DNA of 64,000 bases from Escherichia coli (GTDB lineage: Bacteria > Pseudomonadota > Gammaproteobacteria > Enterobacterales > Enterobacteriaceae), in NCBI RefSeq assembly GCF_044324785.1, contig NZ_CP172127.1, one strand, 5' to 3'. The notes under the pieces are model-generated. The model was not told the DNA's origin and made no database searches. It saw nothing but the letters and a program-made list of their open reading frames with translations. Every line of letters starts with the position of its first letter. The stretch's first letter is position 1. Positions 40,750 to 63,661 of this stretch are shown here, in pieces. The translations under genes were made by a program, and so were the position numbers.

Positions 40750-40898
40750 GCTGTAACGGTAAAGCCCTCACCGAAGCGAGGGCTTGAAGGAGAAGGGTTA
40801 TGATGCGACTTGTCATCATACTGATTGTACTGTTACTCATAAGTTTCCCAGCTTATTAACAGTCAGTCTCAGGGGAGGAGTCATCCTCCCTTACCCTT
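40750..40898 (-). ncRNA. sibC: antisense antitoxin sRNA SibC (ends approximate)
   Basis: Reverse-strand promoter-like TTGACA (40929-40934), 17-nt spacer, TAATTT (40906-40911), just outside the ibsC stop; Sib RNAs are fully antisense to ibs ORFs; ends inferred. Confidence 0.5.
40800..40859 (+). CDS. ibsC: type I toxin IbsC (19-aa hydrophobic peptide)
   Basis: ATG 40800; translation MMRLVIILIVLLLISFPAY; SD gaaggag upstream; in the serA-ygfA gap where K-12 has sibC/ibsC. Confidence 0.75.
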   Translation: MMRLVIILIVLLLISFPAY

Positions 40899-40959
40899 AC
40901 TCACTAAATTAGGTTAAAGAATCAACGATGTCAATCAGGGCGATGCAGGTGTGTCGCCC

Positions 40960-41580: not shown

Positions 41581-41765
41581 AGGGAATCTCCGAGATGCCG
41601 CCGCAGGCTGTAACCCTTGAACCCTTGGTTCAAGGTGAATGTGTCGTCGCAGTTTTAAGGCTTCTCGGACGGACCGAGCATGCTCACCAACCGCGGAGCG
41701 CCACATTCTTGTGGTATGAAATATCGGCTCAGGGGACTGGCCCGCTTGCGAACATCTCAGAGAAA
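41581..41765 (-). ncRNA. ssrS: 6S RNA
   Basis: Reverse complement reads ATTTCTCTGAGATGTTCGCAAGCGGGCCAGTCCCCTGAGCCGATATTTCATACCACAAGAATGTGGCGCTCCGCGGTTGGTGAGCATGCTCGG...GGAGATTCCCT, which I recognise as E. coli 6S RNA. Confidence 0.9.
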
Positions 41766-41807
41766 TTTTGTCTTCACGGTTACTCTACCACAGTAAACCG
41801 AAAAGTG

Positions 41808-58620: not shown

Positions 58621-60354
58621 GTGAAACAACAGATACAACTTCGTCGCCGTGAAGTCGATGAAACGGCAGACTTGCCCGCGGAATTGCCTCCCTTGCTGCG
58701 CCGTTTATACGCCAGCCGGGGAGTACGCAGTGCGCAGGAACTGGAACGCAGTGTTAAAGGGATGCTGCCCTGGCAGCAACTGAGCGGCGTCGAAAAGGCC
58801 GTTGAGATCCTTTACAACGCCTTTCGCGAAGGAACGCGGATTATTGTGGTCGGTGATTTCGACGCCGACGGTGCCACCAGCACGGCTCTAAGCGTGCTGG
58901 CGATGCGCTCGCTTGGTTGCAGCAATATCGACTACCTGGTTCCAAACCGTTTCGAAGACGGTTACGGCTTAAGCCCGGAAGTGGTCGATCAGGCCCATGC
59001 CCGTGGCGCGCAGTTAATTGTCACGGTGGATAACGGTATTTCCTCCCATGCGGGGGTTGAACACGCTCGCTCGTTGGGCATCCCGGTTATTGTTACCGAT
59101 CACCATTTGCCGGGCGACACATTACCCGCAGCGGAAGCGATCATTAACCCTAACTTGCGCGACTGTAATTTCCCGTCGAAATCACTGGCAGGCGTGGGTG
59201 TGGCGTTTTATCTGATGCTGGCGCTGCGCACCTTTTTGCGCGATCAGGGCTGGTTTGATGAGCGCGGCATCGCAATTCCTAACCTGGCAGAACTGCTGGA
59301 TCTGGTCGCGCTGGGGACAGTGGCGGACGTCGTGCCGCTGGACGCCAATAACCGCATCCTCACCTGGCAGGGGATGAGTCGCATCCGTGCCGGTAAGTGC
59401 CGTCCGGGGATTAAAGCGCTGCTGGAAGTGGCAAATCGCGATGCGCAAAAACTCGCCGCCAGCGATTTAGGTTTTGCGCTGGGGCCACGTCTTAATGCCG
59501 CCGGACGACTGGATGATATGTCCGTTGGTGTGGCGCTGTTGCTGTGCGACAACATCGGCGAAGCGCGCGTGCTGGCAAATGAACTCGATGCGCTAAACCA
59601 GACGCGAAAAGAGATCGAACAAGGAATGCAGGTTGAAGCCCTGACCCTGTGCGAGAAACTGGAGCGCAGCCGTGACACGCTACCCGGTGGGCTGGCAATG
59701 TATCACCCCGAATGGCATCAGGGCGTGGTCGGCATTCTGGCTTCGCGCATTAAAGAGCGTTTTCACCGCCCGGTTATCGCTTTTGCGCCAGCGGGCGACG
59801 GTACGTTAAAAGGTTCTGGTCGCTCGATTCAGGGGCTACACATGCGCGATGCGCTGGAGCGGTTAGACACGCTCTACCCTGGCATGATGCTCAAGTTTGG
59901 CGGTCATGCGATGGCGGCTGGTTTGTCGCTGGAAGAGGATAAATTCGAACTCTTTCAACAACGGTTTGGCGAACTGGTTACTGAGTGGCTGGACCCTTCG
60001 CTATTGCAAGGCGAAGTGGTGTCAGACGGCCCGTTAAGCCCGGCCGAAATGACCATGGAAGTGGCGCAGCTGCTGCGCGATGCTGGCCCGTGGGGGCAGA
60101 TGTTCCCGGAGCCGCTGTTTGACGGTCATTTCCGTCTGCTGCAACAGCGGCTGGTGGGCGAGCGTCATTTGAAGGTGATGGTCGAACCGGTCGGCGGCGG
60201 TCCACTGCTGGATGGTATTGCTTTTAATGTCGATACCGCCCTCTGGCCGGATAACGGCGTGCGCGAAGTGCAACTGGCTTACAAGCTCGATATCAACGAG
60301 TTTCGCGGCAACCGCAGCCTGCAAATTATCATCGACAATATCTGGCCAATTTAG
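58621..60354 (+). CDS. recJ: ssDNA 5'-3' exonuclease RecJ
   Basis: 577-aa ORF from GTG: MKQQIQLRRREVDETADLPAELPPLLRRLYASRGV...; DHH motif. Confidence 0.96.
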   Translation: MKQQIQLRRREVDETADLPAELPPLLRRLYASRGVRSAQELERSVKGMLPWQQLSGVEKAVEILYNAFREGTRIIVVGDFDADGATSTALSVLAMRSLGCSNIDYLVPNRFEDGYGLSPEVVDQAHARGAQLIVTVDNGISSHAGVEHARSLGIPVIVTDHHLPGDTLPAAEAIINPNLRDCNFPSKSLAGVGVAFYLMLALRTFLRDQGWFDERGIAIPNLAELLDLVALGTVADVVPLDANNRILTWQGMSRIRAGKCRPGIKALLEVANRDAQKLAASDLGFALGPRLNAAGRLDDMSVGVALLLCDNIGEARVLANELDALNQTRKEIEQGMQVEALTLCEKLERSRDTLPGGLAMYHPEWHQGVVGILASRIKERFHRPVIAFAPAGDGTLKGSGRSIQGLHMRDALERLDTLYPGMMLKFGGHAMAAGLSLEEDKFELFQQRFGELVTEWLDPSLLQGEVVSDGPLSPAEMTMEVAQLLRDAGPWGQMFPEPLFDGHFRLLQQRLVGERHLKVMVEPVGGGPLLDGIAFNVDTALWPDNGVREVQLAYKLDINEFRGNRSLQIIIDNIWPI

Positions 60355-60444
60355 CGTCATCTTCTCTATAAAAAAGAGCGTGGATTGGGTACAATCCCGC
60401 TCTTATCACCGCATTTTGACTAGCTCAATAAAAGAAATCAGACC

Positions 60445-61543
60445 ATGTTTGAAATTAATCCGGTAAATAATCGCATTCAGGACCTCACGGAACGCTCCGA
60501 CGTTCTTAGGGGGTATCTTTGACTATGACGCCAAGAAAGAGCGTCTGGAAGAAGTAAACGCCGAGCTGGAACAGCCGGATGTCTGGAACGAACCCGAACG
60601 CGCACAGGCGCTGGGTAAAGAGCGTTCCTCCCTCGAAGCCGTTGTCGATACCCTCGACCAAATGAAACAGGGGCTGGAAGATGTTTCTGGTCTGCTGGAA
60701 CTGGCTGTAGAAGCTGACGACGAAGAAACCTTTAACGAAGCCGTTGCTGAACTCGACGCTCTGGAAGAAAAACTGGCGCAGCTTGAGTTCCGCCGTATGT
60801 TCTCTGGCGAATATGACAGCGCCGACTGCTACCTCGATATTCAGGCAGGCTCTGGCGGTACGGAAGCACAGGACTGGGCGAGCATGCTTGAGCGTATGTA
60901 TCTGCGCTGGGCAGAATCGCGTGGTTTCAAAACTGAAATCATCGAAGAGTCGGAAGGTGAAGTGGCGGGTATTAAATCCGTGACGATCAAAATCTCCGGC
61001 GATTACGCTTACGGCTGGCTGCGTACAGAAACTGGCGTTCACCGCCTGGTGCGTAAGAGCCCGTTTGACTCCGGCGGTCGTCGCCACACGTCGTTCAGCT
61101 CTGCGTTTGTTTACCCGGAAGTTGATGATGATATTGATATCGAAATCAACCCGGCGGATCTGCGCATTGACGTTTATCGCGCGTCCGGCGCGGGCGGTCA
61201 GCACGTTAACCGTACCGAATCTGCGGTGCGTATTACTCACATCCCAACTGGGATCGTGACCCAGTGCCAGAACGACCGTTCCCAGCACAAGAACAAAGAC
61301 CAGGCCATGAAGCAGATGAAAGCGAAGCTTTATGAACTGGAGATGCAGAAGAAAAATGCCGAGAAGCAGGCGATGGAAGATAACAAATCCGACATCGGCT
61401 GGGGCAGCCAGATTCGTTCTTATGTCCTTGATGACTCCCGCATTAAAGATCTGCGCACCGGGGTAGAAACCCGCAACACGCAGGCCGTGCTGGACGGCAG
61501 CCTGGATCAATTTATCGAAGCAAGTTTGAAAGCAGGGTTATGA
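60445..61543 (+). CDS. prfB: peptide chain release factor 2, made by programmed +1 frameshift (60445..60519 joined to 60521..61543)
   Basis: Frame 0 [25 protein letters not shown] stops at CTT TGA (60517-60522); the +1 frame continues [12 protein letters not shown]... to 61543 (365 aa); SD-like AGGGGG precedes the shift site. Confidence 0.95.
60507..60523 (+). promoter_or_regulatory. prfB +1 frameshift site
   Basis: cttagggggtatctttgac: internal SD-like element plus slippery CUU UGA C. Confidence 0.9.
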
Positions 61544-61552
61544 GGAACCAAC

Positions 61553-63070
61553 ATGTCTGAACAACACGCACAGGGCGCTGACGCGGTAGTCGATCTTAAC
61601 AATGAACTGAAAACGCGTCGTGAGAAGCTGGCGAACCTGCGCGAGCAGGGGATTGCCTTCCCGAACGATTTCCGTCGCGATCATACCTCTGACCAATTGC
61701 ACGCAGAATTCGACGGTAAAGAGAACGAAGAACTGGAAGCGCTGAACATCGAAGTTGCCGTTGCTGGCCGCATGATGACCCGTCGTATTATGGGTAAAGC
61801 GTCTTTCGTTACCCTGCAGGATGTGGGTGGCCGCATTCAGCTGTACGTTGCCCGTGACGATCTGCCGGAAGGCGTTTACAACGAGCAGTTCAAAAAATGG
61901 GACCTCGGCGATATCCTCGGCGCGAAAGGTAAACTGTTCAAAACCAAAACTGGCGAACTGTCTATCCACTGCACCGAGCTGCGTCTGCTGACCAAAGCAC
62001 TGCGTCCGCTGCCGGATAAATTCCACGGCTTGCAGGATCAGGAAGCGCGCTATCGTCAGCGTTATCTGGATCTCATCTCTAACGATGAATCCCGCAACAC
62101 CTTTAAAGTGCGCTCGCAGATCCTCTCTGGTATTCGCCAGTTCATGGTGAACCGCGGCTTTATGGAAGTTGAAACGCCGATGATGCAGGTGATCCCTGGC
62201 GGTGCCGCTGCGCGTCCGTTCATCACCCACCATAATGCGCTGGATCTCGACATGTACCTGCGTATCGCGCCGGAACTGTACCTCAAGCGTCTGGTGGTCG
62301 GTGGCTTCGAGCGTGTATTCGAAATCAACCGTAACTTCCGTAACGAAGGTATTTCCGTACGTCATAACCCAGAGTTCACCATGATGGAACTCTATATGGC
62401 TTACGCAGATTACAAAGATCTGATCGAGCTGACCGAATCGCTGTTCCGTACTCTGGCACAGGATATTCTCGGTAAGACGGAAGTGACCTACGGCGACGTA
62501 ACGCTGGACTTCGGTAAGCCGTTCGAAAAACTGACCATGCGTGAAGCGATCAAGAAATATCGCCCGGAAACCGACATGGCGGATCTGGACAACTTCGACT
62601 CTGCGAAAGCGATTGCTGAATCTATCGGTATCCACGTTGAGAAGAGCTGGGGTCTGGGCCGTATCGTTACCGAGATCTTCGAAGAAGTGGCAGAAGCACA
62701 TCTGATTCAGCCGACCTTCATTACTGAATATCCGGCAGAAGTTTCTCCGCTGGCGCGTCGTAACGACGTTAACCCGGAAATCACTGACCGCTTTGAGTTC
62801 TTTATCGGTGGTCGTGAAATCGGTAACGGCTTTAGCGAGCTGAATGACGCGGAAGATCAGGCGCAGCGCTTCCTGGATCAGGTTGCCGCGAAAGACGCAG
62901 GTGACGACGAAGCGATGTTCTACGATGAAGATTATGTCACCGCACTGGAACACGGCTTACCGCCGACAGCAGGTCTGGGAATTGGTATCGACCGTATGGT
63001 AATGCTGTTCACCAACAGCCATACCATCCGCGACGTTATTCTGTTCCCGGCGATGCGTCCGGTGAAATAA
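61553..63070 (+). CDS. lysS: lysyl-tRNA synthetase (constitutive)
   Basis: 505-aa [47 protein letters not shown]... Confidence 0.96.
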
Positions 63071-63089
63071 GCATTACGTTATGCTCACA

Positions 63090-63116
63090 ACCCCGGCAAA
63101 TGTCGGGGTTTTTTAT
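63090..63116. terminator. lysS terminator, probably shared with convergent idi
   Basis: ccccggca-aat-gtcgggg followed by ttttttattt. Confidence 0.75.
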
Positions 63117-63661
63117 TTAAGCTGGGCAAATGCAGATAATCGTTTTCTGGCTTCGCGATTTGTCGCCTGCATCACCATCCACGGACTGAACGCCCACGGT
63201 GTGGCATCAATACCGTGTAATACATCTGCTAAATCACACCATTGATAATCCATCACTTCATCATCGTTGATCTGTAACGCACTGGTCGTGCGTGCGGCAA
63301 ATACCGGACACACTTCATTTTCCACAATGCCATTCGGATCGGTGGCGCGGTAGCGAAAGTCAGGATAGACCAGTTCTGGTGCTGTTATTTCCACACCAAG
63401 CTCATAACGGCAACGGCGGATCACCGCGTCTTTGTTGCTTTCTCCCAGTTGTGGGTGCCCACAAACCGAGTTAGTCCACACGCCCGGCCACGCTTTTTTG
63501 CTAAGGGCGCGGCGGGTAACTAATAATTGCCCTTTGGCATTAAACAGCCAACTGGAGAACGCGAGATGTAAGAGAGTGTCTGCCGTGTGTGCGGCATACT
63601 TTTCCAACGTACCCGTGGGAACTCCCTGTGCATTCAATAAAATGACGTGTTCCGTTTGCAT
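63113..63661 (-). CDS. idi: isopentenyl-diphosphate delta-isomerase
   Basis: 182-aa [44 protein letters not shown]...; Nudix-type fold. Confidence 0.95.

Follow-up and report, generated by a model that had tools for sequence, protein, structure and literature searches.

Canonical programmed +1 frameshift site in the prfB gene of a 64-kb Escherichia coli window

The prfB gene in the window (the whole 64-kb stretch of Escherichia coli DNA analyzed here) is almost certainly a chromosomal E. coli prfB of the Ala246 type, with the canonical autoregulatory programmed +1 frameshift. All of the features that define such a site at the sequence level were found, that is, a release factor 2 (RF2) host gene, a short ORF0, the slippery CUU U, the UGA stop, the C that follows it, a Shine-Dalgarno (SD)-like element and an ORF in the +1 frame, and no result speaks against the reading of the site as a programmed frameshift. 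The first-pass annotation had called it the classic prfB recoding site, which is borne out by the joined CDS in RefSeq, by the need for a shift in 81 of 110 prfB loci among the matches listed, and by a +1 shift in codon periodicity at the site. The anatomy of the site, the identity of the product, the conservation of the elements, the frame switch in the substitutions and the strength of the SD-like pairing come from the analysis itself; ribosome pausing, the E-site effect, autoregulation and an efficiency of ~50% come from published experiments in E. coli (PMC12421855; PMC10798248).

As shown in Table 1, the site lies at the very start of the gene. A scripted frame check found 25 sense codons from the ATG at 60445, the last of which is CTT (60517-60519), followed by TGA (60520-60522) and C (60523). 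The region 60445-60525, which extends from the prfB start codon through 2 nt beyond the context C, reads ATG TTT GAA ... CTT AGG GGG TAT CTT TGA C. The earlier claim that a UGA within CUU UGA C breaks the RF2 frame after codon 25 is therefore exact in its coordinates, and no continuous single-frame ORF exists for prfB in the window. The SD-like AGGGGG, which had been said to precede CUU UGA C, is found at 60508-60513, 3 nt 5′ of the CUU, with the single codon TAT between them. The other 340 codons had been placed in the +1 frame, and this frame is indeed open from GAC (60521) to TGA (61541-61543), with 1,023 nt that make up 340 sense codons plus the stop and with no internal stops, so that the joined product has 365 aa. 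Even when up to 2 mismatches are tolerated, the 64-kb window contains a single occurrence of the 16-mer AGGGGGTATCTTTGAC, compared to 0.01 expected from shuffles. The heptamer CTTTGAC is not rare (14 in the window vs 8.55 expected); what is significant is thus the complete arrangement, placed as it is in an RF2 gene, and not the bare heptamer.

Table 1. Coordinates of the prfB frameshift site and of the downstream features in the window.
Feature	Coordinates	Strand	Basis
prfB ORF0, codons 1-25 of RF2, frame 0 (ATG ... CTT Leu25)	60445..60519	+	aligns to residues 1-25 of solved E. coli RF2
Internal Shine-Dalgarno-like element AGGGGG	60508..60513	+	sequence, duplex energy, cross-species conservation
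3-nt spacer UAU (Tyr24), the E-site codon with CUU in the P site	60514..60516	+	
Slippery sequence CUU U, proposed tRNA-Leu re-pairing CUU to UUU	60517..60520	+	mechanism from PMC12421855
In-frame RF2-specific stop UGA with 3′ context base C (weak stop)	60520..60523	+	
prfB ORF1, codons 26-365 of RF2, +1 frame, stop UGA 61541-61543	60521..61543	+	SPF at residues 205-207, GGQ at residues 250-252
lysS (lysine-tRNA ligase)	61553..63070	+	ORF, Pfam tRNA-synt_2, RefSeq annotation of the ortholog
Terminator-like hairpin and T-run after lysS	63089..63120	+	consensus scan only

An alternative is that the UGA is recoded in frame, either by stop-codon readthrough or by selenocysteine insertion, since UGA is the selenocysteine codon and is prone to readthrough, especially before C. 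In-frame readthrough is refuted by the sequence, in which frame 0 is unreadable past the UGA because another TGA stands two codons further on (60526-60528), with more stops beyond. In addition, the frame-0 translation has no similarity to RF2, RF2 homology goes on only in the +1 frame, and Rfam shows no SECIS or other element, with no family at the site (59800-62000 at E ≤ 1, and the whole window at gathering thresholds). We therefore regard in-frame recoding as practically impossible. For the frameshift itself, this Rfam negative is uninformative either way, because no curated RNA family covers the prfB element.

The joined translation, whose alignment to RF2 the first-pass annotation had proposed as a check, matches RF2 from end to end. 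It scores 525.9 bits with the NCBIfam prfB model TIGR00020 (cutoff 370); neither the RF1 nor the RF-H models reach theirs. Both the Pfam PCRF and RF-1 domains are present, as are the RF2 tripeptide SPF and the GGQ (Table 1), and residues 1-365 align to E. coli RF2 in PDB 1gqe and to many ribosome complexes. The junction ...RGYL/DYDAK... (the slash marks the change of frame) is the same in the window product and in 1gqe. Judged by these matches, the host gene is a class-I release factor 2, and not RF1 or RF-H.

The ORF listing, which presents the view of a naive gene caller, contains exactly a 25-aa ORF (60445-60522) and a 293-aa ORF (60662-61543) that begins at Met73, and could be read as two genes, namely a 25-codon leader peptide and a truncated RF2 of 293 aa translated from an internal start such as the ATG at 60662. 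We consider such an arrangement very improbable. At codon 26 the +1 frame is already open and homologous to RF2, instead of only from Met73 onward; solved RF2 aligns with residues 26-72 as well as with residues 1-25, and the profile matches start at residue 12 for TIGR00020 and at residue 31 for PCRF. Moreover, the +1 frame has an upstream stop at 60464 and no suitably placed start for this N-terminus between 60464 and 60521, and thus it has no independent entry. The earlier statement that prfB is neither a pseudogene nor two ORFs agrees with RefSeq, where the orthologous CDS is a two-piece join; in the closest genome it is annotated as "peptide chain release factor 2, programmed frameshift".

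The pairing potential of the SD-like element was computed from duplex energies with the 3′ tail of 16S rRNA; because the 16S rRNA gene lies outside the window, the standard E. coli 16S tail was used. The 10-mers over AGGGGG gave -10.7 to -11.7 kcal/mol, compared to an operon mean of -2.14 (sd 2.16), and the AGGGGG pairing ranked near 40 among the 63,990 10-mers in the window. Far weaker pairing than at AGGGGG was computed where translation of prfB (-1.3 kcal/mol) and of lysS (-6.3 kcal/mol) is initiated. The computed duplex strength supports the pairing step of the proposed mechanism. It was also observed that the prfB initiation region (60425-60444) has essentially no Shine-Dalgarno sequence, and that the internal SD-like element of ~-11 kcal/mol is located 65 nt downstream. 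RNA folding of 60480-60580 did not indicate a stimulatory structure (z = -1.82; 13 of 200 shuffles fold equally well), which is no objection because the prfB mechanism needs none.

According to the proposed mechanism, translation would start at the ATG at 60445 and proceed for 25 codons, and the ribosome would then pause, its P site occupied by peptidyl-tRNA-Leu on CUU and its A site by the weak stop UGA-C (60520-60523). Abundant RF2 would recognize the UGA and release the 25-residue peptide. When RF2 is scarce, the pause would be longer; AGGGGG would pair with the anti-SD of 16S rRNA and destabilize the E-site tRNA, tRNA-Leu would slip from CUU to UUU, and GAC (Asp26) would enter the A site, after which translation of 340 codons in the +1 frame would yield the 365-aa RF2. 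RF2 synthesis would be self-limiting because the product competes with its own frameshift. The site in the window has the same sequence as in E. coli genomes generally, and hence we infer with strong support that shifting in the window strain would be of high efficiency and responsive to RF2.

The conservation of the slippery and SD-like elements, which was also among the checks proposed earlier, was investigated across bacteria with a DNA-pattern scan of GTDB species genomes. As its anchor, the scan used the RF2-specific motif HRLVRxSPFDxxxRRHT, which lies ~520 nt 3′ of the site, so that prfB loci were chosen without reference to the site itself. Among the 120 matches listed, 110 had enough upstream DNA; this sample spans many phyla and includes many MAGs, and the frameshift type was assigned by a heuristic. 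Among these matches, 81 of 110 loci (74%) needed a shift at the corresponding position, and 29 loci had a single continuous frame. All 81 frameshift-type loci among the matches listed have CTT before the stop, 80 of them have TGA as the stop (TAA in 1, TAG in 0), 78 have C after the stop, and a GGRGG-like sequence is found at -11 to -7 with the same 3-nt spacer. Among the matches listed, the spacer codon is most often TAT (35/81), and 57 loci are exactly 173 codons from the anchor, which is the E. coli distance. The sole TAA site among the matches listed, CTTTAAC, belongs to an Oscillospiraceae MAG (JAISZG010000026.1; L023:~762) and is consistent with the published absence of TAG, since RF2 also recognizes TAA (PMC12421855). 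Our sample is in agreement with a published survey in which 64% of 12,753 genomes had the site, with the consensus AGGGGG-N3-CTTTGAC and never TAG (PMC12421855).

The frame used on each side of the site was examined from the entropy at each position of the 57 loci with equal spacing. The results show that the frame-0 wobble position is the most variable 5′ of the motif (1.89 bits vs 1.66 and 1.31), and that the +1-frame wobble position is the most variable 3′ of the motif (1.72 bits vs 1.34 and 1.08). The wobble periodicity jumps by +1 at the site, which shows that selection reads frame 0 before it and frame +1 after it. Within the motif, the wobble positions have 0 to 0.9 bits; by this measure of sequence variability, the signal nucleotides themselves are additionally constrained.

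Within the species, 5,400 of 5,425 complete E. coli genomes carry the 81 nt of the site region without a single difference. As controls, two other 81-nt windows of prfB, one of which encodes the GGQ region, were identical in 177 and 311 genomes; with two windows only, scored against the alleles of the window itself, this comparison is indicative only. Compared to the nearest genome, the window prfB has five differences, and all five are synonymous and fall at third positions in the +1 frame. These results bear on whether the frame break is accidental, i.e., whether this prfB is a pseudogene with a 1-nt insertion or carries a sequencing error. An indel would likewise interrupt the frame of an essential gene after 25 codons, and two E. 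coli records with a 1-nt deletion lack the break, so single-base changes either occur here or are mis-called. However, an accidental break would not be expected to be shared by nearly all complete E. coli genomes, nor to lie in a full AGGGGG-N3-CTTTGAC motif that recurs in unrelated prfB loci. The synonymous differences and clear codon periodicity downstream indicate purifying selection, and RF2 is essential with no second copy found (one place per genome). An accidental break is thus scarcely credible, and the programmed frameshift remains the preferred reading.

The two records that lack the break, NZ_CP031355.1 (E. coli O145 RM8995-C1; L002:1301-2398) and NZ_CP029973.1 (dog isolate 51008369SK1), have G4 instead of G5 in the SD-like run, 2 of 5,425 E. 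coli genomes. In both, ORF0 and ORF1 are fused into one frame of 365 codons (...RGIFDYD...). Annotation was inspected for the O145 record, which lists prfB as a plain CDS without a frameshift. Single-nucleotide deletions are a documented route to lost prfB autoregulation in Pseudomonas (PMC13245932). For the G4 records, a natural loss of autoregulation and a homopolymer assembly error are just as plausible as each other.

It is doubtful that the near-invariance of the first 81 nt of prfB in E. coli reflects constraint beyond the known motif. If it does, a feature of the mRNA or the nascent peptide in codons 1-20 might tune frameshifting or aid initiation that is poor in SD pairing. Since the wobble positions 5′ of the motif are free across phyla (1.89 bits), any such constraint would be lineage-specific, or the pattern is partly due to chance. 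Two allelic differences were also noted. The Tyr27 codon (60526), just 3′ of the site, is TAT in the window and appears to be TAC in ~4,400 of 5,425 E. coli genomes, so that the window carries a synonymous minority allele. RF2 of the window has Ala246 (61180-61182), as does that of E. coli B and of most bacteria, in contrast to the K-12-specific Thr246, which weakens RF2 (PMC5373646); the strain is therefore not K-12.

The gene also has its usual surroundings. Of 5,426 complete E. coli genomes, 5,425 match the 1.3-kb region, with 95-99.6% identity and a single copy in each. One genome has no match to the prfB region, and in one other assembly prfB is on a plasmid-labelled replicon; these are probably an assembly gap and a replicon mislabelling, respectively. 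The gene order in the closest genome is xerD-dsbC-recJ-prfB-lysS-idi, and the neighbors in the window are alike, with recJ and lysS, and with a NUDIX-family protein in the position that idi has in that genome. The ATG of lysS (61553) starts 9 nt after the prfB stop, and prfB and lysS are likely co-transcribed. The lysS SD, GAGGA, overlaps the prfB stop (61541-61557), which is itself an RF2-specific UGA; the spacing and this overlap suggest tight operon linkage or translational coupling. The hairpin after lysS (Table 1) is the only plus-strand terminator-like site detected downstream of prfB by the consensus scan. A scan with the sigma-70 consensus gave no match upstream of prfB, and thus did not locate the promoter; the sole match is inside prfB, and the match count is under the shuffle expectation.

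Several other features were observed in and around the gene. Between recJ and prfB, an inverted repeat (60376-60404), AAGAGCG-GGATTGGGTACAATCC-CGCTCTT, is flagged as terminator-like on the minus strand only, where no gene converges, and could serve to terminate recJ or act as a regulatory hairpin. A 334-aa antisense ORF (60506-61510, minus strand) covers nearly all of prfB, but it has no Pfam match and lies over a strongly codon-biased gene, and it is most likely a shadow ORF. Elsewhere in the window, Rfam identified at gathering level the 6S/SsrS RNA (41583-41766, minus strand; 139.8 bits) and a Sib antitoxin RNA (40784-40934, minus strand; 136.5 bits). No tRNA genes were found in the 64-kb window.

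Taken together, these results show that the prfB site in the window is a textbook feature that is already known, and that the first-pass annotation interpreted it correctly. Its value is for annotation, in that prfB should be entered as one joined CDS with ribosomal slippage instead of a pseudogene or separate ORFs of 25 and 293 aa. It also serves as a positive control, as a genuine recoding site was recovered with exact coordinates from raw sequence. With respect to biology, nothing is added beyond what was known in 1985-86 and re-surveyed in 2025 in >12,000 genomes.

The +1 frameshift of E. coli prfB was described by Craigen et al. (1985) and Craigen & Caskey (1986), as cited in PMC10798248. 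The window shares with that system the 25-codon ORF0, AGGGGG, the UAU spacer, CUU U, UGA-C, the 340 codons in the +1 frame, the 365-aa product and the recJ-prfB-lysS context, and there is no difference at the site. With the prfB sites of other bacteria, it shares the CTTTGAC core, an RF2-specific stop, SD-like purines 3 nt upstream and a position near codon 25. In other lineages, the SD-like hexamer varies (CGGAGG, AGGAGG, CGGGGG), as does the spacer codon, and in some Bacillota-like loci the SD-like element is weak (e.g., GGTGAT). The in-frame prfB alleles, found in Actinomycetota and others and as single-nt deletions in experimentally evolved P. fluorescens (PMC13245932), encode the same protein family with a homologous N-terminal region; in those alleles the motif is lost and the gene is one continuous ORF, whereas prfB in the window keeps both the motif and the frame break.
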